The notes below the pieces were generated by a model, which worked only from the letters and a program-made list of their open reading frames with translations, ran no database searches and had not been told where the DNA came from. A DNA stretch of 63,105 nucleotides, counting the filler, from Folioceros fuciformis (Eukaryota): the NCBI GenBank assembly GCA_049999805.1. It is 26 parts of 26 records of this genome, joined end to end, with 100 filler letters (N's around TTAATTAATTAA, not from the genome) between each part and the next. Parts side by side here need not be neighbours in the genome. Positions count along the whole stretch, not along the records: positions 1 to 6,536 come from JBNGIO010000001.1; 25 more parts are not named here. One strand, given 5' to 3'. Shown piece after piece: positions 1-60,945 of the stretch. Numbering within the stretch: position 1 is the stretch's first letter; each line of letters begins with the position of its first letter. The translations under genes and the position numbers were made by a program.

Positions 1-3
1 ACA

Positions 4-16
4 TGGTATCAGAGCC
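4..16 (+). promoter_or_regulatory. Primer-binding site (tRNA-iMet) of E1
   Basis: TGGTATCAGAGCC directly after LTR-terminal CA. Confidence 0.95.
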
Positions 17-52
17 TTTTAAGGATCTGATGTTTTTCTCTCGTTATCGATA

Positions 53-682
53 ATGCCTCGGCACGGTGGATCTGTCGGTCAGGGGCGTGGCTCACGTTTT
101 TGCAGATGTGACAATTACACACAAGCCCCTAGGACAGCTCCAGCCGGACTCAACGCCCTTGCATATTCACTGGTGGGAAGAACTGGTCTTTGTAACCAAA
201 ATTGGTCAAGGGACAGAGAGCGTGCCGAACTACTTCGGCAACTCCAGCAAAGGGATTTTCAAATTAGAGATTACCAGGCCCGTGACCGTTTTTACAAAGA
301 TCAGAGGAGGGATAGGCAGCAGAGGCAATCTCGCATACCGCGGGCATCTGCTGCTACTACCAACTCCAACAGACCACCAAGACCGATTCGATATGTGGAT
401 ACAGTTCCTTCTTCTAGTGGAGGCTCCTCCTGCGATTGCCACAACGAGGCCGCCTCTAGATTGCTGAATGCTTCCCTCAAAGAGATTCTCAACACAACAG
501 AATCAATCAACACAAGAATTTTCGTCAACAACATGCAAGCTCAGGCAAATTTTGATGCTTTCAACGAGAAATGGACATTGAAGATAAAGGAAATCACTGA
601 TCACCTGCAAAGATTGGAGATTGCTGCTCCGATCATTCAGCAGGCTGCAGTGTTCCCACATCTTCCACCTTCCGCTGCCTGA
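53..682 (+). CDS. E1 5' accessory ORF0, 209 aa, unknown function (Arg-rich N-half, helical/coiled-coil-like C-terminus)
   Basis: ATG 49 nt after PBS start; homologous to 36132..36689 (NALAY, WSRDRERAELLRQ, KIKE..D.L.R.EI.AP...SAA*) with synonymous codon differences. Confidence 0.8.
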   Translation: MPRHGGSVGQGRGSRFCRCDNYTQAPRTAPAGLNALAYSLVGRTGLCNQNWSRDRERAELLRQLQQRDFQIRDYQARDRFYKDQRRDRQQRQSRIPRASAATTNSNRPPRPIRYVDTVPSSSGGSSCDCHNEAASRLLNASLKEILNTTESINTRIFVNNMQAQANFDAFNEKWTLKIKEITDHLQRLEIAAPIIQQAAVFPHLPPSAA

Positions 683-1307
683 GAGCAACGAGGTGTGAGG
701 CGTCGCGTGTGTCTTCACGCCTCTTCGCACAGCATCGCCAGCTGGCAGAACGGCACACCTGGAGCTTTGAGGTCAGAAGTGCTGTGTTCTCTCCAGGCGA
801 AGGGCGCCCTGCGTGATGTGAAGCGCCAGACTGCAACCGCCGCGACCTATTCCGAAGCCGCGTTATGGTTGCTGCCAGATGTACAGAAGCAGGGATTCTT
901 GCGACTGTTGAGGCAGAGATTGACACCTGCTGCAACCCCTTTTGTTGTTCTCATGAGTCCTGAAGAGACGTCTTTGCTCCTGCTTAACTTGAAACTGAAA
1001 CACCAACCGTCGTTTCTTGCATAAGTTAGGGCAAAACTGAAGCGATAAGCTGTTTATTGTTTTTTTTCGTCCACAGTCTGTATGCATAGTAACAGGAGTT
1101 ATTGACCTTGGACATCAGCACACCTGAGCTAGGATAGCTTTTCTATCCCTTCTCCTGTATGCTGTTGACCAGGTAACAGCTCCTGCATCTTATCTTGTTA
1201 GGTACACATCAGTAGATGCTGTAATTTTCATAGCAAAGTCTTAAGGGCATTTTGTACTCTGACCTGTGTAGTTTGAGCCATAGCTCACATTACCTCGTTA
1301 GCTTCAT

Positions 1308-4300
1308 ATGTCCACAGGACCCCTCTTATCTGTGGATACCTTAAGTAGCTTGTTTCAAGCACTTAGTCTTGGACAGTTTGTAACCGCTGTAATCCATAAC
1401 CAGAATACTCCAGCAATCATGTCTACAGTAGTTAAACCCACATACACGTCAGAGCTGAAAGAAAAAGATCGGTTTAACGGCTCACACTACGCTGTCTGGC
1501 GTATCCGGATGAAGTCCATCTTGTTAGCCCGACGTGTCTGGAAAATAGTGGATGGGACTACCCCCCAGCCCGACCCCAATGCAACTCCAGCACCATCTGC
1601 AGATCAGATCGCTGAGTGGGATGAATTGAACAACATTGCAATTGCTCTACTAATAGCAGGATTGCATACTGACCTCATTTCCCAGGTCGAGTTTCTCGAC
1701 AAAGCTTCTGAAATCTGGACACAACTGGAGAAGACATACAAGGCTACAAATGTACTGACCCTTGTTGGTGTTAAGTATGAGTTTTATGCCTTGAGGATGA
1801 AAGAGGGGGATAAGGTAGCGGCTTTCACAAGTAAATTCCGTCACCTTAGAGCCCAGATGGCTTCTCTATCTAGTACGAAGATGGAGGAAGTAGATGCTGT
1901 GGCTGAACTCCTCGCGAGACTCCCTTCATCGTACCAATCCTTTGTTACTAGCCAGAATGGACCCTTGAGAGCTGCGAATGTTGCTGCTGCTGCTGGAAGT
2001 GCTGCAAACATCACATTAGAGGATGTCATAGGCGCTTTGTATCAGGAGGAGCAAAGCCGGATGTTTTCTTCAAACACTTCTAAAATTAGAAAGGAGAAGG
2101 CATTATTCACAGCTCCCAAATCATTCAAAGGCAAAGGAAAAGTTGGAGGTAAACCTGGCCAAGGTTCTAATTCCGCTGGTCCAACTAAACGTCTAGGCAA
2201 CTGCAATTGGTGTGGTATAGCTGGACATTGGGCCAGGGAATGCAAGAAAAAGAAGGCAGGGGAACCTAAACGTGCTCCTAAAAGCTCAACTAGTTCTGCA
2301 ACTGTTGTGATTAAGGAGAAGACATCTGGTGACACCAAACCTGTGGTGAAGATCCTAACAATTTGCCTTGCTCGTTCCATATGTGATGAAGATGGTTGGT
2401 ACTTGGATTCTGGTGCCACATCTCACATCTGCAGAAGCAAAGATCAGTTTTATGTGCTGCAATCTAACAGAATGGCTGAAAGAGTGCTGTTGGGAGATGA
2501 ACGACATCAGTCCAGTCTCCAAATCCATGGCAGTGGCATGTGTAAATTCACTTTGCACGATGGATCCATTTTTACCCTGGAAAATGTACTCTATGTGCCA
2601 TCCATGGCGAAGAACTTGGTCTCTCTCAGCAAACTGATGCAGCTTCGAGCATATGACATGACAGCTAGTGAGGATACTTGTCTCTTCTACAAGAGGTCAG
2701 AGCCTTCAATGCTGGCATTTAAAGGTACATTAGATCATGATCTGTATAGACTTGATTTATGCACCCTCCGACACCAAGCTAGCCTTGTCTCTGAGAAGTT
2801 CCAACGTCTTGCTGTCCTGTGGCACGCACGGCTTGGTCACGTTAATAAGAGAAAACTAGTTGACATGTCACTGCAAGAGTGCCACCTTGAGCCTCTTCCA
2901 CAGATTTTCAAGGACTTACCTTCTTGTGAAGCCTGCATTGTTGCTAAACAGAAGGCCCATCCCTTTCCAGTTTCAGCAACCTACAGAGCATCAGTTGTCC
3001 TTGAGTTAGTTCATGCAGACATCTCAGGTAAGATACATGTCCCATCTCTGGGTGGTTCTATATATTACCTCTGCATCACTGACGACTATTCTCGGTATAC
3101 TTGGACGTTCCCGATGCACTTGAAGAGTGATACATTCGAGCTCTTCTGTGATTGGCTATTGACTGCTGAAAAACAGACTGGTTCTTTTGTCAAGTACCTT
3201 CGGACTGACAATGGAACAGAATTCGTCAATGAGGCTTTTGATACATTCCTGCAAGAGAGGGGGATCCAACGTCAACTTACAATCCCCTACACTCCGCAAC
3301 AGAATGGCGTAGCTGAAAGGAAAAATCAAACCTTGCTGGCCATGACACGGAGTATGTTATTGTGGGTTAACTTACCTCAAGAGTATTGGGCTGAAGCCAT
3401 TGTTGCTGCCACCTATATTCTCAATCGACTTTTTACAAGTTCAGTCCCCTCTCAGACTCCATATGAGGCTTTCTGGAAACGCAAACCCAGTTTGCTACAT
3501 CTACGCGTGTTTGGTTCACGTGCTTTTGCTCTCATCCCAGAGGAGAAGCGGAAGAAGCTGGATCCGAGAGCCCAAGCACTTGTTTTTGTCGGGTATAGTG
3601 AGCAGTCCAAAGCTTACAAACTTTATGACCCTGCAAATCAGCGCGTTGTGTTAGCACGTTCTGTCACATTTCTTGAGATTGACAGGCCCCTCATAATCGG
3701 CCACCCAGCAGCAGAGGGAGAAAATGACATACCTCAGCTATCAGACGACGCTGTTCATTTTCCTGATAATGACACTCATGACGAGGGAGATGATACAACT
3801 GTCCAACCTGCTGATATTGCACCTCCCCCTGCTCAACCAGTCCTCATACCCCCTCCACCTGTACAGCATCAGCCGGCAAATGTTGCTGTTAATCCTGACC
3901 CTGATCCATATGAGTATGAGGATGTACCTTTCCCTAATCCAGATGCTGATCTAGCAGCTGGAGATGATGATTATCAAATGGTCATGGAACATGTACCTGA
4001 GGACGATGAACAGCCTTTTCCTGTTCAAGATGAAGAGCCAGATCCTCCTCTACGACGTTCTACCAGAAATCGTCCTCCACCAGAACAATGGAAAGAGCCA
4101 CGTTATGAATCAATCGACTTTAGAACAGCATATGCCGACATCTGCAATTCTGCTTCTAGCACTATACACCTGGAGCCCAAGTCTTTAACAGAAGCATATT
4201 CAGGTCCTGAACGAGATAAGTGGAAGTTTGCAGTAGACGATGAATACAATTCTCTCGTCAAGAATAACACGTGGAAGTTAGTAGACCTCCCACCTAGCAG

Positions 4301-5759
4301 AAAACCTATCTCCTGCAAGTGGGTTTTCAAGTTAAAGTTGAATGCTAAGGGAGAGATTGCCAGATATAAAGCACGACTGGTTGCAAGGGGATTCACGCAA
4401 GTGGAAGGGCTAGACTATCAGGAAACATTCTCTCCTATTGTTAGGGCACAGTCAATTAGGATGATAATCGCCCTAGCAGCCGAGTTTGACCTGGACTTGC
4501 AGCAAATGGACGTATGCACAGCTTTCTTGTATGGTGCGTTAGATGAAGACCTTTACATGGTACAGCCAGAAGGGTATGAAGACTCTAAGTATCCAAAGAA
4601 AGTTCTGAAGCTACTGAAGACCATTTATGGTCTGAAACAGAGTGGCAGAGTCTGGTATTTCACTATACATGAGCACTTGATTAACAACTCATTTGTTCAA
4701 AGCTCAACTGATGGTACTGTTTACAAGCTAATGAAGGGAACTGCCTACGTCATTCTAGCACTGTATGTTGATGACGTGATTTTGGCCACTAATAGCCAAC
4801 CCTTGTTAGCTGAGGTCAAAGAAATGCTGAGCAACAAGTTTGAAATGAAGGATATCGGTGAGCTACGTTTCTGCCTTGGCATTCAGTTACTAAGGGTCAG
4901 ACCTGAGAAGTTGATCATCATTCATCAGTATCAATATGTTCAAGAACTGCTACATAAGTTTAAGCTTGAACATGCCCGGCCATCTACTACACCATATGCT
5001 ATAGGGACTAAGCTCACTAGTCTGCAATGTCCACAAGGTGCAGATGAGGTGAGGGAGATGGCACAGGTCCCTTACAGGCATGCCATAGGAAGCTTAATTT
5101 TTATAGCTAATTGGACAAGACCGGACATCCAGTATTCAGTCAGCACCCTATCCCAATTTCTGGAAAATTCAGGTCGAGTTCATTGGCAGGCAGCCAAAAG
5201 TGTCTTCCGCTACCTAAAGGGTACTCAGTCCTATGGACTAGCATACAGAAGCACTGGACAGCAGAAACTTACGCTGAAAGGCTTCACAGATGCTGATTGG
5301 GCATCAGACACAGAATCACGTCGAAGCCTTTCTACATATTGTTTTCTCCTCTCCTCAGCTGTCACCAACTGGAGCTGCAAGAAACAAACATCAGTTGCCC
5401 TCTCGTCAACTGAGGCCGAGTACAAGAGTCTGACAGAGGCCTCTAAGGAGGCAGAGTGGATACGAACCTTTTTGACAGATTTGGGGCAACAGCAAACAGA
5501 GCCAACCCCACTTCTATGTGACAACATGTCCGCTCTTGCGCTTGTTGCAAATCCTAAATTTCATGCACGCACGAAACACATTGAAATTCAACATCACTAT
5601 GTTAGAGATGTGGTTCATCGTGGTATTATAAAGGTCTGCCATGTTCCAACAAATGAAAATACGGCAGACATCCTTACAAAGGGCCTTCCCAAGCATCTAC
5701 ACTACCAGCATATGGAAGGCCTAGGGCTTATTGATTTCACAGCCTATGAGCAGAACTAA
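1308..5759 (+). CDS. gag-pol: Copia Gag-Pol polyprotein, intact, 1483 aa (alternative ATG at 1419)
   Basis: Zn knuckle CNWCGIAGHWAREC; protease WYLDSGAT; LWHARLGH; integrase DDYSR / RTDNGTEF / QQNGVAERKN; RT YKARLVARG and YVDD; RNase H DADWA, EAEY, CDN, KHI, ADILTK; Copia domain order. Confidence 0.97.
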   Translation: MSTGPLLSVDTLSSLFQALSLGQFVTAVIHNQNTPAIMSTVVKPTYTSELKEKDRFNGSHYAVWRIRMKSILLARRVWKIVDGTTPQPDPNATPAPSADQIAEWDELNNIAIALLIAGLHTDLISQVEFLDKASEIWTQLEKTYKATNVLTLVGVKYEFYALRMKEGDKVAAFTSKFRHLRAQMASLSSTKMEEVDAVAELLARLPSSYQSFVTSQNGPLRAANVAAAAGSAANITLEDVIGALYQEEQSRMFSSNTSKIRKEKALFTAPKSFKGKGKVGGKPGQGSNSAGPTKRLGNCNWCGIAGHWARECKKKKAGEPKRAPKSSTSSATVVIKEKTSGDTKPVVKILTICLARSICDEDGWYLDSGATSHICRSKDQFYVLQSNRMAERVLLGDERHQSSLQIHGSGMCKFTLHDGSIFTLENVLYVPSMAKNLVSLSKLMQLRAYDMTASEDTCLFYKRSEPSMLAFKGTLDHDLYRLDLCTLRHQASLVSEKFQRLAVLWHARLGHVNKRKLVDMSLQECHLEPLPQIFKDLPSCEACIVAKQKAHPFPVSATYRASVVLELVHADISGKIHVPSLGGSIYYLCITDDYSRYTWTFPMHLKSDTFELFCDWLLTAEKQTGSFVKYLRTDNGTEFVNEAFDTFLQERGIQRQLTIPYTPQQNGVAERKNQTLLAMTRSMLLWVNLPQEYWAEAIVAATYILNRLFTSSVPSQTPYEAFWKRKPSLLHLRVFGSRAFALIPEEKRKKLDPRAQALVFVGYSEQSKAYKLYDPANQRVVLARSVTFLEIDRPLIIGHPAAEGENDIPQLSDDAVHFPDNDTHDEGDDTTVQPADIAPPPAQPVLIPPPPVQHQPANVAVNPDPDPYEYEDVPFPNPDADLAAGDDDYQMVMEHVPEDDEQPFPVQDEEPDPPLRRSTRNRPPPEQWKEPRYESIDFRTAYADICNSASSTIHLEPKSLTEAYSGPERDKWKFAVDDEYNSLVKNNTWKLVDLPPSRKPISCKWVFKLKLNAKGEIARYKARLVARGFTQVEGLDYQETFSPIVRAQSIRMIIALAAEFDLDLQQMDVCTAFLYGALDEDLYMVQPEGYEDSKYPKKVLKLLKTIYGLKQSGRVWYFTIHEHLINNSFVQSSTDGTVYKLMKGTAYVILALYVDDVILATNSQPLLAEVKEMLSNKFEMKDIGELRFCLGIQLLRVRPEKLIIIHQYQYVQELLHKFKLEHARPSTTPYAIGTKLTSLQCPQGADEVREMAQVPYRHAIGSLIFIANWTRPDIQYSVSTLSQFLENSGRVHWQAAKSVFRYLKGTQSYGLAYRSTGQQKLTLKGFTDADWASDTESRRSLSTYCFLLSSAVTNWSCKKQTSVALSSTEAEYKSLTEASKEAEWIRTFLTDLGQQQTEPTPLLCDNMSALALVANPKFHARTKHIEIQHHYVRDVVHRGIIKVCHVPTNENTADILTKGLPKHLHYQHMEGLGLIDFTAYEQN

Positions 5760-5840
5760 GTAACTCTGGAAAATCCTGACAAACCAGGTTGGATGAAGCT
5801 CCAGTTCAGCATCTAATCACCTGGCTATTTGGTTCGGCCT

Positions 5841-6278
5841 TCACTCCTCCTCTCTCGGCATCACGTCCTTAATTCTGTCCAGCATTTCAATGGTGTCCTC
5901 CAGCTGGCTGATCAAGGTCTGTTTCCCTTCCTCCTCAATAGCGTACAAAGGCAGATTAGGAGTTTCCCCTCGCTTCACCTTTCCCCAGATTAGGTTCACG
6001 CTCAGTTCCATGTGATAGGCACCCAAGTGAATCCTCTGGCCCCAGCACGTCTTGTAGTCCCAGTCCCAGCCGCGGGCAGTAGCCTGCCTCTTGTCCAGCA
6101 GCTCGTAAACATTAGCTGGCAGAGTCGGTATGCTGTTCTTCCTGTTTTTCCTCGGTCGCGCAGCTCCCTTGTACGCCTTGCCACTTCGAGTCTTCATGGC
6201 GCACCGCAGGAGAAGATGTATGCACAGGAAACACAGCAGTTCAGCTCCGGCGATCAAAGAGGCAAGGTTGCTAGCCAT
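5841..6278 (-). CDS. E1 antisense accessory ORF, 145 aa, N-terminal hydrophobic (TM/signal-like) helix then basic region
   Basis: ATG in GCCATGG context; LASLIAGAELLCFLCIHLLL then MKTRSGKAY; counterparts at the same position in E2 and E5. Confidence 0.7.
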   Translation of the reverse strand: MASNLASLIAGAELLCFLCIHLLLRCAMKTRSGKAYKGAARPRKNRKNSIPTLPANVYELLDKRQATARGWDWDYKTCWGQRIHLGAYHMELSVNLIWGKVKRGETPNLPLYAIEEEGKQTLISQLEDTIEMLDRIKDVMPREEE

Positions 6279-6503
6279 GGCTCCAGCACTTGGTTTTATT
6301 CTTCTTCGGGCTGCCGCGGTACAGAGATTGTTGGGCGCTACTCAAGCACAGTGCCAGGAACGTGACTGTGAAGTTATGAGTTTGAGTCGTCCAGCTGCTA
6401 TGAGCAGCTTCACGTGGCATCGCGTACCGCTTTCGTTTACGAAGGGTTTGCTTTAGGATGATGCCGGGCTTGTTTATTGTTCGTTAGTTAAGCTTATGAG
6501 CTT

Positions 6504-6512
6504 AAGAGGGGG
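6504..6512 (+). promoter_or_regulatory. Polypurine tract of E1
   Basis: AAGAGGGGG immediately before TGTTACGGG (3' LTR start). Confidence 0.9.
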
Positions 6513-6536
6513 TGTTACGGGTTAAGCTGCCATATG

Positions 6537-6636
6537 NNNNNNNNNNNNNNNNNNNNNNNNNNNNNNNNNNNNNNNNNNNNTTAATTAATTAANNNNNNNN
6601 NNNNNNNNNNNNNNNNNNNNNNNNNNNNNNNNNNNN
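6537..6636. other. Artificial contig linker (N44-TTAATTAATTAA-N44). First of 25; others start at 7683, 8829, 9973, 11116, 12259, 13391, 14522, 15637, 16752, 17862, 19004, 20113, 30499, 35937, 42037, 43160, 44294, 45426, 50822, 52316, 53524, 54673, 55781, 61349
   Basis: Identical 100-nt spacer each time; TTAATTAATTAA gives stops in all six frames; many flanking pieces are about 1.0 kb in roughly descending size. Confidence 0.98.
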
Positions 6637-7983
6637 CGTGCATGCCATTGCTGGACGCGCCTACACCTGCCGTTGCTATGCTGATGTGTTGCTCCTCAAT
6701 TGACCCCATTCTGAACCTCCATAAAATCGATCTATCCCCCCTCCTTCAAACCCTCGCGAGGTGGAGTTCGCAGGTCGAGACCTCGCGGGAAAAATTTTAG
6801 CACTTAGGGTTTCTGTACATTGTAAGTAATTATTTCCACTGATTCAACTCATTTCATCTCAATTACATACAAATATAGAGGTACGCAGAGTCTGTTGATC
6901 TTGGCAATTGAACCATTTTCTTATTTGGCACCTCGGAACTCTCTGGAGACCTACCAAGCATAAAAATAAGTAGTATAAAATATTAAAATATATTATCTAT
7001 TTAATATATTTCATATATATTTAAATATAAGAAATTATATACGAACATTCGCACCGGAGTATTACTTATTGCTAACTTGTTTTGGCATTTCTATCAATCT
7101 CCTAAGGCCATAAAAGGCTTGCCACTCATTATATTGCACAATCGTGGTAAGTTATGGCTTTCCCGAGATCAAGCTATGCACATATGTTACCATGGTTTCA
7201 AGCTCATTTTGTCGAATTGTTGGACTCGAACAATGTAAAATGAGGTCAGGGTTACCAGCATTTAGGTAGGAAATCTTAGTTAGGGTAATCGTTACGTTAA
7301 TCACACACATTTTCTAAAGACCTTCTTTCAACAAGCTCCCACCACAAGTTGCTTTGTAAAGCTAGCTCAATCTTCGCAATGTGAGGAGCCATTGCAATAA
7401 AAGAGAATGTTCCAACTCACATTGCAGCCCTCAATTTTTAATTGCATTGTGATCTTTGCCATCTTAATTCATATAAATGTGGGCTACTTTGAAGCTTGCA
7501 TTTCAAGAATTAAATAATATAAATATTGCATAAGATAGTCTAGCTAGTGTTTAGGGAGAAGCTTGTACTTAGAAGCCAATGTGTATTTAGCAACATCATT
7601 AAGAAGAAGCTTAGACTTAAGATTAGATTAAAATGAATCTAACTTTGTGTACTACTATAGATGAACTAACTTTTGATGTGTCNNNNNNNNNNNNNNNNNN
7701 NNNNNNNNNNNNNNNNNNNNNNNNNNTTAATTAATTAANNNNNNNNNNNNNNNNNNNNNNNNNNNNNNNNNNNNNNNNNNNNGTGCAGCCCAGAGCACTC
7801 AGAAGCCTCACGTCTTTCCACATATCTTTATCCCAAGGCTTGCACATGTAACATCGAGCAACCTGACTTCCTTGCACATGCGACATCCATTAACCGGACA
7901 TGCATCTAAAGAGCCACGAATCGTGAACGTAAGCAGAACGTGGTACAGAAAATGTCTCCTCCGGGGAGCACGGTGATGCCAAA

Positions 7984-35708: not shown

Positions 35709-36131
35709 TGTCACTAACCCATGCTTGCTGCCATCGACATTCTCCAGAGAGAATTCTCCAGATGCATTTGTGACAGCAGCGCAACCGAGATAGCAACGCT
35801 CAGGCTGACGAAGTGAAGACGCCGTGCAAGCCTGCCACCAGAGAAGTGGCCATGGCTTCGAACCAGATCTAAAATGCAGACACAACGCAGCGTGACTGGA
35901 AAAATTCACCAAGGGATGGAGAAAATCCCAGCGCCGNNNNNNNNNNNNNNNNNNNNNNNNNNNNNNNNNNNNNNNNNNNNTTAATTAATTAANNNNNNNN
36001 NNNNNNNNNNNNNNNNNNNNNNNNNNNNNNNNNNNNCTCTCTCGCCCTCCGGCTCTCACCTCCCGCTACATGCGAACTTAACATGGTATCAGAGCCATCT
36101 TGGTTCTGATGATTCCTCATCGTCGCTAAGA

Positions 36132-36689
36132 ATGCCTCGGCGAGGCGGTTCCGCCAACAAGGGGCGCGGATCACATTTCTACAAGTGCGACAACTCGCCC
36201 CGCTTTCCTAAGACGGTTCCGGCTGAAATCAACGCCTTGGCGTATTATCTTGCTGGTGGAGCAGGCTCCCACAGCCCATTCTGGTCCCGCGATCGGGAAC
36301 GGGCTGAATTGCTTCGGCAATTCTACAGACAGGACCGAAGCCCTGGCGACCACAAATCGGAGCGGCGGCAGCGACAATTCTACCCCCACCCTGCATTGAA
36401 TTCCTTCCGCGACCTGCCCAGGGAGGTGCGCCCAGGATATTCATTACATGCCAGCGGCGGGGTTCCTGTACGCGCTCCCCACGGCCAATTCAACGACCAC
36501 TTCGAGGAGACCTCCACCACCTCAGAATCCGTCCACGTTAGAACTCTTATCAGTGAAATGACGAACCTAATGGACGGATTGACGATGAAGATCAAGGAAT
36601 TGGCTGATTACCTGCTTCGATTTGAGATCTCTGCACCCAGTATCTCGCAGGCATCAGCTCTTCCTGACCACACACATTCCGCTGCCTGA
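36132..36689 (+). CDS. E2 5' accessory ORF0, 185 aa, homologue of 53..682
   Basis: ATG 48 nt after PBS start; 39/63 identical N-terminal residues with E1 ORF0; same SAA-TGA end. Confidence 0.8.
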   Translation: MPRRGGSANKGRGSHFYKCDNSPRFPKTVPAEINALAYYLAGGAGSHSPFWSRDRERAELLRQFYRQDRSPGDHKSERRQRQFYPHPALNSFRDLPREVRPGYSLHASGGVPVRAPHGQFNDHFEETSTTSESVHVRTLISEMTNLMDGLTMKIKELADYLLRFEISAPSISQASALPDHTHSAA

Positions 36690-36878
36690 GAGCTGCGAGG
36701 CGCGAAGCGCCGCGTTTGCCCTCGCGACTTTTCGGCTTGTGGAGACAGCTGCCTGAGCGGCATGTCCACGTTGCCGAAGGTGTGAGAGCGAGGCCAGAAA
36801 CGCCGCGCAACCATAGGTACAGAGTCGCTGTCGTTTGGCGGTGCCCCATGCCAGCGGACACCTCTAACTGAAAACCCG

Positions 36879-39800
36879 TTGACTCGAAGGGGAAGGAGAG
36901 TAACAGCAGTTAGCAGAGTTGGGTCAGTCATACCTTCGTCACCCCTGCGTATGTCAGACAGCTCTGAGTCCCCTGACGTCGGCAGCGACGTTCCGGAGTC
37001 AGACCTCAACAGCAATCCTCCCCCATCGGCAATTGCTGTGGAGCGCTTGCAGTCACTCAATTCCATTGCTCTTGCTTTCTTGATAAACGGGCTTGATGAG
37101 GACCTCGTACCTACAGTGGAATTCCATACGAAAGCACACCAGGTTTGGGATCAGCTTGCAAGTACGTATCAAGTTAAAAACCTTATGTCCCTTTGTGCCG
37201 TCAGGCAGGAATTCTATACCTTGAAGATGAGAGAGGGGGAAAAGATGGCTGCACACATCACCAAATTTCGTCAGCTCCGCTCTCAGTTGCTGAGTATGGG
37301 CACGAAAATGGATGAGTTGGATGCAGCTGCTCACCTCCTCACGACGTTGCCACCTTCTTACCAAGGCTTCATCACTACACAGAACATTCCCTATTTGACT
37401 GCCTCGGCTGGCCGTACCTCCACTTATACAGTTGACATCCTTATCGGAGCCCTTTTTCAGGAGGAACAAGCCAGGAGTCATTCTTCAGGGAGCTCTCGCT
37501 CCAAGGGAGATAAGATTCTGTCAGCTCGGCACACACCTAACAAAGGCAAGAGCAAATTTCAGAAACCTGATTCAAGCCCTGCTAACCCTCCCAAAAGGAC
37601 AGGGACTTGTAACTGGTGTGGAATTGCTGGGCACTGGGCCCGTGAGTGTAAAAAGAAGAGGGCTGGCGAACCGCAGCGAACATCCAAGACTTCGGCTAGC
37701 GTTGCTAAGGAGAAATCCAGTGATACTAAGAACGTGGTCAAGATACTCACAGTTTGCTTGACTAGTTCTTGTTCGGACACAGAAAGCTGGTACCTGGATT
37801 CTGGTGCCACGGCTCACATTTGTCGAAACAAGAATCACTTCACCTCTCTGACCCCTTGTTGTGAGAATGACAAGGTGTTCCTTGGAGATGAACAGCTCGA
37901 TAGCAGTTTGCAAGTCAAAGGACAAGGCAAGGTTACTTTCCGATTGAAGGACGGTTCAGATCTTACTCTTGAACGCGTTCTGTACGTACCAGCCATGGCG
38001 AAGAATCTACTGTCCATGAGTCAGCTCCTGAAGCTGCGGACGTTTGAGATGCAAGCCACCGGTGATACGTGCACCTTCTACAGGAAGGTTGCCCCAGACA
38101 CTTGCTTTTTCAAGGGTTTCCTTGATAATGATCTGTATTGCCTTGATCTGCTGTCTGTAAGGAATGCCACCGTGCATAGCACTGGATTAGCTAACCTGGA
38201 CACCAAGCAGCTGGCTATGTTATGGCACGCAAGACTCGGACATCCCAACAAACAGAAGTTGCTGGACATGTCCGTCAAACAATGTTTTAGGGAACCCCTT
38301 CCCCGTTGTTTCAAGGACTTACCGTCCTGTGAGGCGTGCATAATAGCCAAGCAAAAGGAACACCCCTTTCCTTCCACTCCAGCATACAGAGCTACCTCTG
38401 CCTTAGGCTTGGTCCATGCGGACATCTCTGGAAGGATACAGGTGCCGTCTATAGGTGGTTCCAATTACTACCTTACCTTAACGGACGACTACAGCTGTTA
38501 CACTTGGACATTCCCTATGCAGAGGAAGAACGATGTCTTCGACATCTTCAAAGAATGGCTTCCTGCAGTACAACGCCAAACGGGTTTGCTGTTAAAGTAC
38601 CTGCGTACAGATAATGGCACCGAGTTTGTTAATGATGCCTTTGATGAATACCTAGCTGCGGAGGGGATTCAGCGGCAACTTACCGTTCCTTATACACCCC
38701 AGCAAAATGGGGTTTCTGAGAGGAAGAATCAGTCCTTGTTGGCCATGACCCGGAGCATGTTGCTCTGGTCCGGCCTCCCTCAAGCGTATTGGGCAGAAGC
38801 CATTTGTGCAGCAACATACATTCTGAACAGAATTCTTACGAGCTCTGTCCCGAATCAAACACCCTATGAGGTCTTCCATAAGAGGAAACCAAGTCTGCTG
38901 CACATGAGAGTTTTTGGTTCCCGAGCATATGCGTTTATTCCTGCGAAGAAACGCCAGAAGTTAGACCTGAGAGCTCAAGCCCTTGTTTTTGTAGGGTACA
39001 GTGAGCAGTCTAAGGCTTATCGACTGTATGACCCGACTCTCAGGAAGATGTCACTCGCACGGAGTGTCACCTTCATTGAGCCCCATTCTCCATTGCTCAC
39101 ACATGCTCCGCAGACAGAGGGAGCTTCGGACATACCTGAGGAGACAGAGGGAGGATCTACGTACCCTGTGAATGAGGGACAGGTCACTTATCAGATGTAT
39201 CCTCAGGATGCCGAACCTCAGGATGCCGAACCCCAGGATGCCGAACTCCAGGATGCTGAACCCTTGGACGCTGTCTTGCCGACACCCGATTTGGTCGCAC
39301 CTCTTCCCGCTGAACCAGACCCTCAGGATGACCCGGACCTCATCCCTTTTGACGACCCAGGTGCTCCTGTCCAAGTTGCTGCGGACTTACCAGATGCTGC
39401 TCTTTTCGACGAGCCGGATCCAGCACCCATTATGGATGAGCATCTACCGGAGGTCATTGAAACTCCACCAATCCCTCCTGCAGTAGTTGCCCGCGACACC
39501 GAGGAAGTGGTACCTCGCCGTTCTGACCGCCACCGACCACCACCTGATCAATGGGCTGAACCGCGTTACCAATCTATTGACTTCCGCCATCGGGCAGCCC
39601 CAGCTACAGCACACACTGCTCCGTCGGCCATCCCGGATGAGCCACGCACTTTGGCCGAGGCTTACAACGGACCTGACAGTAAGCAGTGGCGTGCGGCCGT
39701 CGAAGACGAGTACCAGTCTCTGATTAAAAACAAGACCTGGACTCTTGTGGACTTGCCACCCGGCCGCAAACCCATTTCATGTAAATGGGTCTTCAAACAC

Positions 39801-41231
39801 AAACTGAATGCTGAGGGCGAGATCGCCCGGTACAAGGCCCGTCTCGTGGCCCGTGGTTTTACCCAGGTGGAGGGTCTGGACTATCAGGAGACATTCTCCC
39901 CTGTCGTCCGGTCCCAATCCATACGCATGCTGTTGGCTCTGGCTGCAGAATTCGACCTTGACTTATGGCAGATGGATGTCTGCACAGCATACCTTTATGG
40001 GTCTCTGGATGAAGAACTGTACATGCAACAGCCGGAAGGTTACGTTAGTAAGCAGCACCCCAAGCAGGTTCTTAAACTTTTAAAATGCATCTACGGACTG
40101 AAGCAATCTGGTAGGGTTTGGTATTTTACCATCCACGTCTATCTGTTGGACTTGTCTTTTGTTCAAAGTGCCGCAGATACCAATGTTTACCGGCTGACTA
40201 GGGGCACAGCTTTCGTCATAGTTGCCTTGTATGTCGATGATGTCATTCTGGTCACAAACAGTAAAACTCTGTTAGATGAAGTCAAGCAAATGCTCAGCGA
40301 CAGGTTCGAAATGAAAGACATTGGTGATCTAAAGTTCTGTTTAGGGATACAGATCCTCCGAGTTCGTGAGGAGGGTCTTCTGGTTATCCACCAGCATAAA
40401 TACATTCGGGAAATCCTGCATAAGCTCAAGATGGATCAAGCCCGTCCAGCCACCACTCCTTCAGCTGTGGGCATCAAGTTAACAACTGATCAGTGCCCTA
40501 CCACTAAGGAAGCTAAGCAGGATATGGCGGATGTACCTTACAGGCATGCTGTTGGCAGTCTTTTGTTTGTGGCAAACTGGACTCGCCCAGACATACAGTA
40601 TGCAGTGAGCACCGCTTCTCAGTTTACGGAAAACCCTGGACGCCCCCACTGGTCAGCCGTAAAAAGAATCTTCCGTTACCTGCAGGGCACACACACATAT
40701 GGGTTATTCTATAAACGAAGTGGCACAGGCACATTCCATCTATCTGGCTTCACGGATGCTGACTGGGGTTCTGACAGTGACGGACGTCGCAGTTTATCTA
40801 CTTACTGTTTCTTGCTGGCCAATGCGTCTGTAAGTTGGAGCTGCAAGAAACAAACTACAATAGCACTGTCCTCATCGGAGGCTGAATACAAATCTCTTAC
40901 AGAAGCCTCCAAGGAGGCAGAGTGGGCTCGATAGTTTCTGGCCGACCTTGGTCATCCTCAACGTGCTCCCACTCCTATTCTCTGTGACAACACTGGTGCT
41001 CTTGACCTTGTGGCAAATCCCCGATATCATGCTCGTACAAAGCATATCGAAATCCAACACCACTATATTCGTGATGTATCTGCACGAGGCGTGGTGAGAG
41101 TGGGTTATGTTGATACCGAGCTGAATACTGCCGACATTTTTACTAAGCCACTACCTAAGCTCAAGCACTATACACACATGACGGGACTTGGCCTGCAGGA
41201 TTACTCTGCTCATTTTGATTTAGTGCCATGA
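36879..41231 (+). pseudogene. gag-pol: E2 Gag-Pol, apparently lacking the Gag N-terminus, with a premature TAG (40932-40934) in RNase H
   Basis: Similarity to E1 starts only at LNSIALAFLINGL; all PR, IN and RT motifs present; the frame continues after TAG through KHIEIQHH / ADIFTK to 41231. Confidence 0.92.
39201..39263 (+). repeat. 15-bp in-frame tandem repeat x4 (PQDAE) in the IN-RT linker
   Basis: CCTCAGGATGCCGAA variants. Confidence 0.9.
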
Positions 41232-41413
41232 CTCTAGCTACTGCAGCTGGATATGAACACTTATCTGGGGGGGGGGAGGGTGGGAACCTAAGTTCCCTAA
41301 TTGCTGCTCCTCTCCAGACACCGTCTTTCTGCAGCCCACTTCCACAGTCTGTCAGTGTTTTTCCTCGCCGTCAAGCTGGTGCAGGTGGATGAAGCTTCAC
41401 TTACCTGATCTAA

Positions 41414-41839
41414 TCACTCTGCTCCAGCCTCCACAGTACTCCCTTCCATCCCTCTGGTGGCCGGCACGAACTCCATTGGCAAGGGAATCTTGGCAGCCAT
41501 TTGCAGCAGTTCGCGGGCGTGCTCCGTGCTGGTGTCTTCAGGTCGCTTGAGGACTTCTTCGGCACGCCTAACTCTGGCTATGGCGACCTCCATTGACCAC
41601 TTGCCCTCCCAGCCGGCAAACCTGATCAAATGTTCCACCCTCACAGGCGTCCAGCTCTGGCCTACCCTCTTCTTCTCTTCTGGTGGCGGCGCTGCTCTCC
41701 TTGCCCTTGCTTTTTTCTCTTCTGGGGGTCTTGCACAACTGTGAAGATCCAATCCATATCTACGACCACTGCGCGTTGCCATAATCCAGCGGTGGATCCC
41801 TATGCTCAGTGTAGCTAGCGCAACGAGGAGAGCCGTCAC
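41414..41839 (-). CDS. E2 antisense accessory ORF (GTG start with hydrophobic leader; first ATG at 41782, MATRSGRRY)
   Basis: Same position as in E1 and E5; motifs MxTRSG.xY, LIRFAGWE, KIPLP. Confidence 0.65.
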   Translation of the reverse strand: MTALLVALATLSIGIHRWIMATRSGRRYGLDLHSCARPPEEKKARARRAAPPPEEKKRVGQSWTPVRVEHLIRFAGWEGKWSMEVAIARVRRAEEVLKRPEDTSTEHARELLQMAAKIPLPMEFVPATRGMEGSTVEAGAE

Positions 41840-43259
41840 CGCAAGGGTTCTCTGTCAGGGTCTTGCCCATCGTGGGCGCCTGGAGCTCGTCAGTGCCGGG
41901 CAATGGCGCTTCCTCTTCTCTACGGAACGGAACGCAGTGTTGCCCTCGCCGCCGCCGTAAGTAGTTGACGCCGTTAGGTTAAGAGGGAGTGACGAAGGGG
42001 TAACCCTACACTTGGTCAACTAACTAGCCGAGTTAGNNNNNNNNNNNNNNNNNNNNNNNNNNNNNNNNNNNNNNNNNNNNTTAATTAATTAANNNNNNNN
42101 NNNNNNNNNNNNNNNNNNNNNNNNNNNNNNNNNNNNCCTTAGGAGCGTGCAGAAGGGGGTTGGGCATAGGCATGTGGGTGGCGTGCTTAACTTGCCCTGG
42201 CCTTACCCAAGTGCGCCGGGGGCTGAGGATCTGAAGGCAGGCAGCTCATCTGGCTGGCAGGCTTGGCAAGCTATCCTGGCCTCTAGGCGAACGAATCCGA
42301 CAAGCAGCCAGGCCGGGCAGGTTGGCTCCCTGGCTGGATATGGAGGCCAGAGGTTGGCTAGCAGCCTTTGGCCAGTCGGCCTAGGCAAGCAAGCGACGGC
42401 CCAGGGGGCCAGCCAGCCAGGCCGGGGGGGAAAAGGGCTGAACGGATGTGGAGGAGCTGCAAGGGGGCACCGCACCGGGCTGGCTGCAACGGAGGCCGCA
42501 TCGGGTGGCCGACAGGTGGCTCGGCAATTGCTGGATCTGGAAGCCGGCAGGAGGCCCACAAGCAGTCGGATCCAGGCCAGGCGGCTGCAGGCTTCGGGTG
42601 ATTCGGGCTCTGGCCGATCAGCCAGTAGCTGCCAACCCAACAGATCGGGCTGCAGGCAGCCAGAAGCGGCCGGGGAAGCTGGGCAGTGTCTGGCTGCAGG
42701 TACCCAAGCAACCAGGCAGGCTGGCTATTGGCCTCCAAGCAGACGAACTCGACAGGTAGCCAAGCCGGGCAGGCTGGCTGCCTAACTGGATCCGAAGGCA
42801 GGAGGCTGGGGTGTGACCTCGAAGTGGGCAGCCTGGCTGGCGCTGACGGCTGGCTGCCTACCAGATTCGGAAGGCAGGAGGCCGGGTTGCGGCCTCTGAG
42901 GTCGAAGGATCTAGGCGGTTTGGTAGCGGCAGTGGAGCAGGCAGTGGCTGACTGATCTTGGAGCCAGGCAATTGGTGGCTGGCGGTGAGGCCAGGTGGGC
43001 TGTAGGTAGGTAGGCCGGCTTGCAGCAGCTTGTAAGCGGCCTAGCAGATGCCGGATCGCCAGGCAGCCAAGCTGCTGCCTGGCGGCTGGCAGCAGTGGCT
43101 GAGATGGCTAGCCAGCGGGATTAGGGGCAGCAGGCCTCTGGCAGCTTGGCCGGATCCGGNNNNNNNNNNNNNNNNNNNNNNNNNNNNNNNNNNNNNNNNN
43201 NNNTTAATTAATTAANNNNNNNNNNNNNNNNNNNNNNNNNNNNNNNNNNNNNNNNNNNN

Positions 43260-55779: not shown

Positions 55780-55935
55780 CNNNNNNNNNNNNNNNNNNNN
55801 NNNNNNNNNNNNNNNNNNNNNNNNTTAATTAATTAANNNNNNNNNNNNNNNNNNNNNNNNNNNNNNNNNNNNNNNNNNNNAGACCTTCATTCGAAGGTCT
55901 ACAGTTGGACCTTGCAGTTGTGAATCTCTTCGGCG

Positions 55936-58900
55936 ATGAGTACCAGGGGGATACAGTTTGGTTCTGGTGACGAGGATGACTCGGCAGAAGCAGACGGCTT
56001 GGCCTCTCCCGCAACGCGCACGGGAGGTGGTGGAAGCTCTCCTGCTTCGACTGCGGGCCATCCTGGAGGCGTCGCTGCACAAGCTCACGGAACTCAGACT
56101 CCTCTCGGGAGATTCGGGACAGGGAATACAGGGGGAGCCACCGTTCCTGGCAGAGTTCCTGCGGCAGGGGGTGTCTCTAATGTGCCTGGGGGAAGCGCCC
56201 AGCACATACCTGGTGCGCCTGCTCTCGGAAGCGGTGGATTGTTTCCGAATCCTCTGGCTGGTCTTTATGCTGCACCGGGAGGCTTCGGGATTCCAAATTG
56301 GTACACAGGTCTTAGTGGAAATTATGGTTCGTATGGTGGCCCAGCTGGCTATGTACAAGTCCCGCCCGTGCCACCTCCACCTACATTTCCTCCTGTACCA
56401 TCTTCTAATCCACCACCGCCCGTCCCTCCTGTTCCTCCTGTACAACCGACATCTCCTGGTCCTGGTTCACCAACGACACCACAGCACGTTTATCAGCCTG
56501 CCTATACCATTGAGTTCAAAGAACGTGACAGGTTTAATGGAACTAAATACCCTGTCTGGAGTGTGCGTATGCGAGCTGCACTTGAAGCTCGACACGTTTG
56601 GTCCGTTGTGACAGGACAGTACCCTGAACCTCAACCCACTGCTACTCAGGATGATAGAGACAGGTGGGTTAATGCAAACAGTGTTGCTCGTGCTTTGCTC
56701 ATTAGTGGGCTGGATGAAGTGCTTGTTCCCGATGTTGCTTATCTCTTAAAGGCTGAGGACATCTGGAAGCAACTGGCACAGACACATGATGTGAGGAACA
56801 TTCATACCCTGTGCCACGTACGAACCGAGCTATTCTCCCTGCGCATGAAGGAGGGTGAGAAAGTTGGTACCTTTGTTGCCAAGTTCAGGCTCTTACGTTC
56901 CCAGCTGATTTCATTGGGGACACAACTTGATGATGTCAATGCCGTTGCACAATTACTAAGCAGCTTGCCTCCCAGTTATCAATCCTTTGTATCCAGCTAC
57001 GGTGCCATTCTCAATGCTGCACAGCAAGCTGCAGCTCTTGGATTGGCTCCCCAGATTTCATTCACTGAAGTGGTTGGCGCCTTACTCCAAGAAGAGCAAA
57101 GTCGGGGCCACCATTCACCTGGAAAGACAAAGGTTGATAAGGTCCTTTACTTGAATAAACAAAAATTTCAAGGGAAAGGAAAACACACGTCTGGTGTTGG
57201 TGCTTCCAAACCAGTATCTGGCAAGCGGGCAGGCTCATGTAATTGGTGTGGCATCCCAGGGCACTGGGAACGTGAATGCAAGAAGAAGAAAAATGGAGAA
57301 CCGAAAAAGGCCGAGAAGACCCAGAAGGTGGTTGAGGCGCATTCAGTTTCCAAAGACAGGTCTTCTTCCTCCAGCAAGCCGCCTGTGGTGATGACTGTGT
57401 GTCATCACATTTCCGTTTGTGAACCTGATTCGTGGTATCTGGATTCGGGAGCAACTTCCCATATTTGCCACAATAAGAACCTGCTTACTAATTTCATTCC
57501 TACAAGAACAAATGAGAAGGTTCTTCTGGGAGATGAACTTTCACAGACAGGCCTTAAGATTCACGGCAAAGGCTCTTGTACCTTTCAACTGAAGGATGGC
57601 ACCGCTCTTCAGCTTGATCACGTCTTATATGTCCCTACCATGGCCAAGCACCTCCTGTCCGTTAGCCAGCTTATGAAGCTTCGAAAATTTAATCTCAGCT
57701 TTTCGGTATCTGGTTGCACGCTTACGCACACAGATGCTGCACAAGGCGTTCCCCTAGCTCGAGGGATCTTGGTCGATGACCTTTATAAGCTGGACATATG
57801 TTGTCAACCTGCGCACAGGGTTTCTGTGGCTGCCAACACACAGTCCTCGTTAGCCCTACTTTGGATTGCTCGTTTAGGACATGCAAACAAAAACAGACTT
57901 CTAAAAATGTCCACTGTGGACTGCTATAGGGAGCCGCTGCCTAAATGTTTCAAGGAACTTCCCCTTTGTGACTCATGTATTTTGGCCAAGCAAAAGGAGT
58001 TACCTTTTCCAACTGCTGTTGCTCACAGGACCTCTAACGTCCTTGATCTTGTGCACACGGACATATCTGGCAAGATACATGTTCCTTCTTTGGGAGGCTC
58101 CAATTACTACCTCACCTTGATTGACGACTATAGCAGATACTGCTGGACATATCCTCTTACTAAGAAATCAGATACCTTCCTGGTATTTCAAGAGTGGCTT
58201 CCCATGGTTCAGCGTCAGACGGGTCGGCTTCTTCGCTGCTTGCGTTCTGACAACGGGGGCGAGTTTGTGAATCCAGCTTTTGACCAGTTTCTTGCAGACC
58301 GTGGCATCCTACGCCAGCTTGCTGTTCCCTACACCCAAACAACAAAACGGTGTAGCCGAACGTCGTCAGCAAACTCAGCTGGGCATGACTCGCAGCATGC
58401 TTCAGTGGTCTGGCCTGCCCAAATCGTACTGGGCAGAGGCTGTTGTTACAGCAACATATATTATGAATCGTCTACTTACGGATTCTGTACCAGGGCGTAC
58501 TCCATTCGAAGTTATGTGGCAGCGTCGACCCAGCATACTCCATCTTCGTGTCTTTGGGTCTCCTGCATATGCCTATGTTCCTGCAGAAAAACGCAAGAAG
58601 TTAGATGCCCGTGCACTGCCCTATATTTTTGTTGGTTATGGTGAAGAGACCAAGGCTTACAAGCTTTATGACCCTATTTCTCGGTCATGTATTTATGCCC
58701 GCAGTGTCACTTTCAAGGAGCTTACTCAACCTGCTGTTTCTCATCCTGCTGATGTACCTCCTCCCGTCTTTACTGCGGATGATTTTGACACTTCTGTTTC
58801 CGAATTTCCTCACGACCTATATATGGTTTCTTCTTCAGAGGGAATGCCTGCTAGTGGTTCAGGGGGTGATCCCTTACCATCATCTGAAAATCCGCAGCCT

Positions 58901-60868
58901 ACTTCTCCGCTGGCATCTCCTTTGCCTGATCAACAACAGGAGGATGCCTCCACACCTGCAGATTTGATTATGTCTGATGATGACTTGAATGAACCTCTCG
59001 CAGCACACTCTGAAGACTTACCTACTGCTGTAGTGTCTCCAGCCCCTCTGACTGATTCACTGGACGAGAATATTGTTGCTTCAGATGATGACCAAGATCC
59101 TCCTGTTCCGGATATTCCCATCCCTGCCGAGCCTAGGTATCCTAGCAGGACACGGAACCCTAGATCTCAGTGGCAGGAAAGACCATACGAAGCTATTGAT
59201 TTTCGGAACACTAGATCTACCAGGTTGGTCACGAGTTTACCTGCCGTTTTCTCCTCTTCCTTGGAGCATCCTCCTGAGCCCAGATCCTATAAGGAGGCCA
59301 TTACCGGTCGCGACAAAGATAAGTGGCTTCCCTCTATACAAGATGAATACAATTCACTTGTTAAAAATGGAACTTGGGAGCTGTGCCCTTTACCTGCTGG
59401 CCGTAAGGCCGTCAGTTGCAAGTGGGTATTTAAGCATAAACTGAATGCTCAAGGACAGATTGCAAGATACAAGTCCAGACTCGTTGCTCGAGGGTTTTCC
59501 CAAGTGGCTGGTGTAGACTACACAGATACCTTTAGCCCTGTGGTCAAAACTCAATCCATCAGGATGATTCTAGCTTTAGCAGCTGCTCGTGACTGGGATC
59601 TAGAACAGATGGACGTATCAACGGCTTTCCTTTATGGGGAGCTGGAAGAAGATATTTTTATGGAACAGCCGGAGGGCTTCGTAGATCCTCAGCATCCAAC
59701 TTGGGTTTGCAAGCTTAAGAAAACGATATACGGGCTTAAACAAAGTGCAAGGGAATGGTATAAAACTATCGATGCTTACCTCAAATCGATAGGTTTCACA
59801 CAGAGCTCTGCTGATTCCAACGTCTACATCCACATTAGGCACGGACACATTGTTATTCTAGCTCTCTATGTTGATGATGCCATTCTAGCATCAGATAGCC
59901 GAGAGCTCATGGATTGGATTAAGCAGATGCTTCACAAACAATACGAGATGAAAGACATCGGAGCTCTTACTTTTGTGCTTGGAGTTCAGCTCCTAAGGGA
60001 TCGTGCTCAGAAGACTCTTATTCTGCACCAGACAAAGTATATAAATGAAACCCTGCGACGTTTCCATCTTGATCAAGCAAAACCCGTTAGTACCCCGGGA
60101 GTAGTTGGTGCAAGGCTTACTTCTGCACACTCTCCACAGACAGATGCTGAATTCCAGGACATGGCAGAAGTTCCTTACCGCCATGCCGTTGGCTGTCTTA
60201 ATTATATAGCTTGCTGGACCCGTCCCGATATCCAGCATGCCGTCAGCTGTGTTTCGCAGTTCCTCGAAAAACCTGGCAAAGAGCATTGGGGTGCTGTTAA
60301 ACGCATTCTGCGGTATTTGAAGGGCACGTCAACATATGGAGTTTGTTACCGAGGTACTTCTCCAGAGTCTGACTTTGTTCTTCAAGGCTTCGCTGATGCC
60401 GACTGGGCTTCCGATCCAGAGACTCGTCGCAGCCTTTCAGCTTACTGTTTCACTTTATGTGGTGCTGTGGTCACCTGGAGTACGAAAAAGCAAGTCACTA
60501 TAGCCCTTTCCTCCACCGAGGCTGAATACAAGGCCTTGACTGATTCAGCGAAGGAGGCAGTATGGGCCCGCAGTTTCCTTGCAGATCTTCAGTTTCCACA
60601 GGCTCAACCAACCCGCGTGTATTGTGACAACCAATCGACAATAGCGTTAGTCGGCAACCCTCGTTTCCATGCCCGGACGAAACATATCGGAATCCAGCAC
60701 CATTTTGTGCGACATTCAGTTGAGCGCAAGATTGTGAAGATTGAATACATCCCAACAGATCTAAACCTAGCCGACTTGCTTACCAAGGCTCTTTCTAAGG
60801 CTAAGCATATGTTCTTTCTTGAAGAGATGGGGATTACCGATTCCCTTGAGTATCTCCCATCCAGTTGA
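55936..60868 (+). pseudogene. gag-pol: E5 Gag-Pol with a single frameshift near 58335 in integrase
   Basis: ORFs 55936..58644 and 58280..60868 join at YTP|QQNGVAER; all Copia motifs present. Confidence 0.93.
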
Positions 60869-60945
60869 CATGAAATCTGCTGGGGAGCGCACCAGGTCTT
60901 TGCGGATGAAGCCTTCACGCCTGCATCCAGTCGCATGGCCTGCTG

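Follow-up and report, generated by a model that had tools for sequence, protein, structure and literature searches.

A 63,105-nucleotide (nt) stretch of DNA from Folioceros fuciformis (GenBank assembly GCA_049999805.1), hereafter the window, holds three retrotransposons of the Copia superfamily, E1, E2, and E5, each of which carries on its minus strand, between the stop codon of pol and the polypurine tract (PPT), an open reading frame (ORF) of 100–145 codons. These antisense ORFs are longer than chance predicts. With a probability of roughly one half, we read them as a genuine antisense accessory ORF that is specific to this Copia lineage and evolves fast. The reading is favored because of the position, the orientation, and the length of the ORFs, and because of the similarity between the products of E2 and E5. 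An antisense ORF was observed in all three members of the lineage in the window, alike in place and orientation, and both are constant across elements whose pol is only 50–60% identical (60% between E1 and E2, and ~50% between either of these and E5).

An earlier, sequence-only reading of the window had placed minus-strand ORFs between the pol stop and the PPT at 5841–6278 in E1, 41414–41839 in E2, and 60946–61248 in E5, and all three were found at those coordinates. The E1 ORF starts with ATG and encodes 145 amino acids (aa), with p values of 0.002–0.009 in the length shuffles described below. The E2 ORF encodes 141 aa from a GTG (p 0.0175–0.03); as the same reading had cautioned, its hydrophobic leader is not preceded by an ATG, and the first ATG, at 41782, gives a product of 122 aa beginning MATRSGRRY. 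The E5 ORF starts with ATG and encodes 100 aa (p 0.007–0.05), and its frame is open further, up to a GTG at 61314 within the long terminal repeat (LTR). With pol stops at 5759 (E1), 41231 (E2), and 60868 (E5), all three ORFs are tail-to-tail with pol. The pol stop of E1 lies 744 nt from the PPT and 81 nt from the ORF stop; the ORF takes up 59% of this spacer, and its start is 225 nt from the PPT. The corresponding values are 749 nt, 182 nt, 57%, and 141 nt in E2, and 410 nt, 77 nt, 74%, and 30 nt in E5. All three ORFs therefore lie where the "aORF-3R" of other retrotransposons are found by definition, on the strand opposite to gag-pol and between the pol stop and the PPT or 3′ LTR.

The lengths of the ORFs were compared with those in shuffled spacers, using 2000 dinucleotide-preserving shuffles of each spacer and 5000 shuffles of each that kept the local composition in blocks of 30–120 nt. 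For an antisense ATG ORF at least as long as the one observed, the dinucleotide shuffles gave p = 0.002 (E1), 0.0175 (E2), and 0.0495 (E5); for the frame measured from stop to stop, the values were 0.003, 0.032, and 0.133, respectively. When local composition was kept, the ATG ORFs had p values of 0.003–0.009 (E1), 0.02–0.03 (E2), and 0.007–0.01 (E5). Fisher combination over the three elements yielded 1.8e-4 to 2.4e-4 for the ATG ORFs and 1e-3 to 2.5e-3 for the open frames, values that should be discounted by perhaps 10-fold because the strand and the pattern were picked after the fact by the sequence-only reading. The antisense strand is not simply free of stops, since its other two frames contain 8 and 7 stops within the ORF span in E1, 8 and 3 in E2, and 8 and 3 in E5.

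An outside control was provided by 80 distant Copia loci from metagenomes (best pol identity 43%), and the 45 in which a pol stop was followed by ≥800 nt of sequence were counted. Downstream from pol, an antisense ATG ORF of at least 100 aa was present in 2 of these 45 loci and a sense ORF in 3. One of the two antisense cases, a 109-aa ORF within 2299–3099 of locus L037, looks like part of a different reverse transcriptase; in our own reading of its sequence, it would be a nested insertion and not an accessory gene.

The three proteins had been proposed to form one family, and this part of the sequence-only reading stood for the E2–E5 pair, which passes the shuffle test, while E1–E2 is borderline and E1–E5 is not significant. 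Each pair was scored against full shuffles (local and semi-global alignment), against shuffles of 10- to 20-residue blocks, which are stricter because the hydrophobic and basic zones stay in place, and by its rank among all 36 frame pairs of the spacers. The E2–E5 pair had a BLASTP E value of 0.14, full-shuffle p values of 0.003 (local) and 0.0005 (semi-global), and block-shuffle p values of 0.003–0.009. It ranked first of the 36, with a score of 56 against 46 for the next pair. Its alignment is collinear, covers ~97 columns with 30% identity, and brings the LIxxAGW(E/D) and (K/R)IPLP motifs into register; on this comparison, the E2 and E5 antisense proteins are plausibly homologous. For E1–E2, the BLASTP E value was 29, the full-shuffle p values 0.02 and 0.0035, the block-shuffle p 0.04–0.07, and the rank third; E1 is tied to E2 only through the nine-residue motif M-x-TRSG-(K/R)-x-Y. 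The E1–E5 pair gave no BLASTP alignment, full-shuffle p values of 0.06 and 0.07, a block-shuffle p of 0.17–0.25, and sixth rank, and thus the E1 protein appears to have no detectable relationship to that of E5. Fisher's p over the three ranks is 0.015, for pairs that are not independent of each other. No nucleotide similarity is left among the spacers of E1, E2, and E5, so that retention of the ORFs by descent alone is unlikely.

The products share an order of parts, namely a hydrophobic N-terminal helix, a tract rich in Lys and Arg, and a mostly helical tail. Both of the first two had been described from the sequence and were borne out: the best 19-residue stretches have Kyte-Doolittle means of 2.15 (E1), 1.66 (E2), and 2.05 (E5), and the 30 residues after the hydrophobic stretch include 10, 9, and 13 Lys or Arg, respectively. 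In the E1 protein, the hydrophobic part spans residues 5–23 and the basic tract residues 24–53. The short motifs that had been quoted were all located as well, including ARGWDW, LIRFAGWE, and LIALAGWD, the NLPL, KIPLP, and RIPLP sequences, and the M(K/A)TRSG(K/R)xY motif shared by E1 and E2. The last reads MKTRSGKAY in E1, where it is headed by the internal Met-28 (ATG at 6197), and MATRSGRRY in E2. The candidate starts lie in the contexts gccATGg and gccATGa (E1), attATGg (E2), and acaATGa (E5), with a purine at −3 in all cases. AlphaFold2 models from alignments of three and of two sequences were all-helical, with a mean predicted local distance difference test (pLDDT) score of 56.5 and 51.1, too weak for a fold search. 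The hydrophobic-then-basic layout was found in 3 of the 45 ATG ORFs of 100–200 aa in the window, two of which are the E1 and E5 antisense ORFs; with these two left aside, 1 of 43 ORFs in the window had it, as did 1 of 247 from the metagenome loci. The thresholds for this count were set after the candidates had been seen, and the E2 antisense ORF passes them only from its GTG.

The main alternative is a non-coding spacer: the sequence from pol to the PPT would be a 3′ untranslated region with cis-acting roles, and the open frames would have arisen from composition and chance. We regard this as possible, although doubtful, and several results that favor it or otherwise weigh against an antisense gene have to be considered here. 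None of the three pairs of antisense proteins is significant by BLASTP, and both pairs that include E1 lack significant homology. The order of similarity also contradicts the pol tree, in which E1 and E2 form the closest pair, whereas E2–E5 ranks first here. The pattern was singled out post hoc from 63 kb, and the p values of E2 and E5 taken individually are only 0.02–0.13, depending on the null model. The hydrophobic leader of E2 has no ATG ahead of it, and the 540 nt that follow the antisense ORFs on their own strand contain neither AATAAA nor ATTAAA, although these may not be the signals of the host.

Database searches likewise returned no homologue of the antisense proteins. Word-index protein searches with each ORF, at E ≤ 1 and 0.55–1.75 times the length of the query, found no match; a Pfam scan at E ≤ 0.1 assigned no family to the three ORFs; searches against the sequences of the PDB gave nothing below E = 0.03; and tblastn revealed no relative elsewhere in the window or among the 80 Copia loci from metagenomes. 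No related locus was found in a scan of viral_contigs, and the ESM Atlas had no usable match for the antisense ORF. The Atlas recognition value of the E1 antisense ORF (1845) is uninformative, because the conserved ORF0 described below scores lower (1391). Two candidate matches were set aside. A profile of the three ORFs, run against 1.84 billion representative proteins, had three matches at E ≤ 1e-3 that were rejected as spurious, being long bacterial repeat proteins in which a short stretch was matched repeatedly (2–6 stretches), and a Pfam match of the E1 ORF to a lambda-integrase arm was below threshold (E = 0.032; 14.7 bits vs. a cut-off of 22). Contigs from one sequencing run, compared with E1 at 80% likeness, had only two 40-nt matches within pol, which say nothing about expression.

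A yardstick for these comparisons is ORF0, a sense ORF located between the primer binding site (PBS) and gag at 53–682 in E1 (plus strand, 209 aa) and at 36132–36689 in E2 (plus strand, 185 aa). The two ORF0 proteins are 39% identical, and at either end of the ORF the two elements are still similar at the DNA level. No Pfam family and no Atlas match was found for them, and neither the N-terminal extension of E5 nor any other part of the window nor the 80 Copia loci from metagenomes contained an ORF0. Since ORF0 is still recognizable between E1 and E2, a true accessory gene can survive this degree of divergence, and the antisense ORF, if real, would evolve much faster: ORF0 of E1 and E2 keeps an E value of 1e-39, whereas the antisense ORFs of the same elements are at E = 29. 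Judged from the sequences, ORF0 is better supported as an extra gene than the antisense ORF. Codon usage was scored with a log-odds model that was trained on the pol genes of other elements and excluded stop codons. The antisense ORFs scored 0.018 (E1), −0.015 (E2), and 0.005 (E5), intermediate between coding and non-coding sequence, the references being 0.06–0.08 for pol windows and about −0.06 for wrong frames. This also fits a non-coding spacer; the test cannot decide, because ORF0, at 0.02, scores like the antisense frames.

Base composition bears on the same alternative. A pyrimidine-rich tract of 20–30 nt is present on the sense strand of all three spacers (6133–6153, ~41695–41723, and ~61100–61130), followed by a purine-richer stretch; on the antisense strand the tract is purine-rich and poor in stops, and read backwards it encodes the Lys/Arg tract of the antisense ORF. 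Such a composition gives a hydrophobic and then a basic segment on either strand, which makes the layout weaker evidence of a protein than it looks. The third ORF with this layout in the window is in fact a sense ORF of E1, at 6130–6456, overlapping the same DNA as the antisense ORF, and the best sense frame within each ORF span is itself nearly open, with one stop only. The layout may therefore partly reflect base composition. A non-coding spacer is harder to reconcile with the combined shuffle p of ~2e-4 to 2.5e-3, which holds even with local composition kept, with the 3–8 stops in each of the other antisense frames, with the background of only 2/45, and with E2–E5 at the top of the 36 frame pairs. 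Nor was there a stable RNA structure or an Rfam match that would explain a conserved composition: the sense-strand fold z-scores of the spacers are 0.21 (E1), −1.94 (E2), and −1.24 (E5), and an Rfam scan of the window gave no match. Short inverted repeats occur in the E1 spacer only, and tandem repeats are negligible.

It is also conceivable, though improbable, that an antisense transcript functions at the RNA level, for instance pairing with the genomic RNA and so feeding silencing or controlling copy number, and that the ORFs are incidental or weakly constrained. The position of the ORFs is kept while their protein sequence changes very fast, as would be expected in that case; antisense promoters without coding capacity are described for the Copia elements AtRE1 and Mdoryco1-1 in the available part of PMC7264820, where a double-stranded RNA role of antisense transcripts is also raised. 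An RNA function gives no reason, however, for an open frame of 100–145 codons in three diverged lineages. Last, the spacer could be the remnant of a third, env-like sense ORF or a captured host fragment, with the antisense frame open as its mirror; sense frames of 95–141 codons do overlap the antisense ORFs, and one in E1 is open from ~5829 to 6365 but for a single stop, but we consider this very unlikely because all the sense frames are interrupted while the antisense frame is not, no sense/sense pair is conspicuous within the ORF spans (the highest-scoring E1–E2 sense pair is outside, near the ORF starts), neither Pfam nor the databases searched gave a match that would point to a captured gene, and a like arrangement in three diverged lineages argues against a one-off capture.

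The three host elements come from a window made up of 26 short contigs, mostly ~1.0–1.4 kb in size, with 25 identical linkers of 100 nt between them (runs of N around TTAATTAATTAA; at 6537–6636, 7683–7782, and so on to 61349–61448). Because the joins are artificial, closeness of two features on different contigs implies no linkage in the genome, and the surroundings of the elements in the window are artificial as well. The contigs of E1 (1–6536), E2 (36037–42036), and E5 (55881–61348) all stop 24–63 nt into the LTR, past a conserved polypurine block, TTAAGRGGGNGTG. As they are cut at the LTR edges, each represents the internal part of one Copia element, and the LTRs themselves are absent. The PBS of E1, TGGTATCAGAGC, was read directly at 4–15 on the plus strand, immediately 3′ of the last bases of the 5′ LTR (…ACA), and an identical 12-mer is present in E2 at 36084–36095, a few bases inside the contig start. 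At the start of the E5 contig, no PBS could be recognized.

The gag-pol of E1 (1308–5759, plus strand) is an intact ORF of 1483 aa that matched gag Pfam families of the copia type. That of E2 (36951–41231, plus strand) is a single frame with one in-frame stop codon at 40932–40934, and that of E5 (55936–60868, plus strand) is split by a frameshift into two ORFs overlapping at 58385–58644. The PPTs, all on the plus strand, are at 6504–6512 in E1, where the LTR follows from 6513 (TGTTAC…) to the contig end at 6536; at 41981–41989 in E2, with the LTR from 41990 to the contig end at 42036; and at 61279–61285 in E5, with the LTR from 61286 to the contig end at 61348. The assignment to Ty1/Copia follows from the PBS in E1 and E2, the copia-type gag in E1, and the PPT read in the elements. 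The full Copia order of protease, integrase, reverse transcriptase, and RNase H was observed in a further element, E3, to which E1 and E2 align over ~1100 residues. E3 belongs to a different Copia lineage (33% pol identity) and does not have such an antisense ORF; with only ~190 nt from pol to the PPT, it has no room for one of this kind.

Two further observations concern the sequence around these elements. The top frame pair between the E1 and E2 spacers is a short sense-frame match on the plus strand, 6255–6360 against 41821–41905, just upstream of the antisense ORF starts. The match may stem from a short stretch of DNA (…GTGGGCGC…CAGTGCCRGG) that is conserved in the interval from the ORF start to the PPT and could be a cis element. 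Elsewhere in the window, the minus strand of a 10-kb contig (20213–30498) has an RVT_1 reverse transcriptase match (E = 4.5e-35) and weak matches to an aspartyl protease and a Ty3 capsid; these retroelement pieces are probably of the Gypsy type and fragmented.

HTLV-1 HBZ is a nuclear protein with a basic leucine zipper (bZIP) domain. The sequence-only reading had drawn an analogy with it, and the analogy held for the layout, an antisense ORF at the 3′ end, and did not extend to the protein: the Pfam scan found neither a bZIP nor any other domain in the three ORFs, and their basic tract is ~70 residues away from the C-terminal helix. Like the ORFs described here, HBZ lies antisense at the 3′ end of an element that undergoes reverse transcription, and its product includes a basic region (PMC11963269, PMC7264820). 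Its promoter is in the 3′ LTR, whereas the contigs of E1, E2, and E5 end within the first 24–63 nt of theirs. HIV-1 ASP is a hydrophobic, putatively membrane-associated protein of ~190 aa with two modeled transmembrane segments, encoded by an ORF that overlaps env (PMC10186651). It is likewise antisense and hydrophobic, and was first proposed from a complementary-strand ORF of >100 codons (PMC10186651); the ORFs of E1, E2, and E5, by contrast, are in an otherwise non-coding spacer and encode one N-terminal hydrophobic stretch followed by the Lys/Arg tract.

The closest counterparts in position are the aORF-3R, which lie antisense between pol and the 3′ LTR, as in gene23 of maize Grande, rice RIRE2, Silene Retand, Phaseolus PvRetro13, and Botrytis Boty (PMC7264820). 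Their function is described as unknown, some of their products are nuclear, and those of Grande and Retand are transcribed (PMC7264820). In Retand, a TRP28 domain is encoded by 97% of the clusters and the region from pol to the LTR measures 2.9–6.6 kb (PMC11963269). The antisense ORFs of E1, E2, and E5 share with the aORF-3R their place, an orientation antisense to gag-pol, and orphan sequences, and the known ones have been suggested to act in regulation or in the nucleus. They differ in the type of element, since the named examples are Gypsy or, in the available text, not described as Copia (PMC7264820, PMC11963269), and in scale, with spacers of 410–749 nt against 2.9–6.6 kb in Retand (PMC11963269) and ORFs of 100–145 aa against >200 aa. 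Neither the Retand-type Transposase_28 (TRP28, PF04195) nor SMC was found in the three ORFs by Pfam at E ≤ 0.1. Whereas Grande and Retand have transcribed antisense ORFs, those of E1, E2, and E5 are known from the ORFs alone.

Antisense transcription as such is familiar in Copia-type elements, the antisense RNAs of yeast Ty1 being one example. Copia antisense promoters have been reported in Arabidopsis AtRE1 and apple Mdoryco1-1 (PMC7264820), which share with E1, E2, and E5 the superfamily and, as would apply here, antisense transcription within or near the end of the element. In the part of the source available, these two are not described as protein-coding, whereas the evidence in E1, E2, and E5 is an ORF. 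No description of a coding antisense ORF in a Copia element was found in the full-text literature searched, which was covered in part and without supplements. The terms antisense, aORF, and additional ORF are all absent from PMC6317226, and the available text of PMC8220671 mentions the subject of antisense ORFs in its introduction only.

If the antisense accessory ORF is genuine, its transcript would begin near the PPT or inside the 3′ LTR and would be translated into a fast-evolving protein of 100–145 aa. The basic tract could bind nucleic acid or direct nuclear import, and the hydrophobic head, where translated, would be a membrane anchor that leaves the basic part in the cytosol. The product might then modulate the expression or replication of its own element, a role already proposed for the extra antisense ORFs in Gypsy elements and for the antisense proteins of retroviruses. 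We put forward the promoter, the transcript, the membrane anchor, and the isoforms as hypotheses. The anchor is uncertain, given that the E2 leader has no ATG and that the same layout is encoded on the sense strand of E1. The Met that heads M-x-TRSG-(K/R)-x-Y, which is Met-28 in E1 and Met-20, the first ATG, in E2, may be the real start in both, and a start there would give a soluble basic protein without an anchor.

Antisense extra ORFs are recognized but unexplained in some Gypsy retrotransposons, in deltaretroviruses, and in lentiviruses. If the ORFs of E1, E2, and E5 are not real, they illustrate that a "protein architecture" can be imitated by base composition on either strand. If they are real, they would offer a compact system for the function of such genes, with a spacer of 410–749 nt, an ORF of 100–145 aa, and the intact gag-pol of E1; and because the E1 ORF is perhaps unrelated to those of E2 and E5, they could show whether antisense genes arise repeatedly. 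More tentatively still, the three elements may represent a "complex" Copia lineage with two accessory genes beside gag-pol, the sense ORF0 and, at the 3′ end, an antisense gene. The latter would encode a small basic protein, anchored in a membrane or not, and two start codons might give rise to two isoforms of it. Such a lineage would parallel, among Copia elements, the complex retroviruses with their sets of accessory genes, its antisense gene evolving so fast as to be recognizable only by its position, its layout, and a few motifs.

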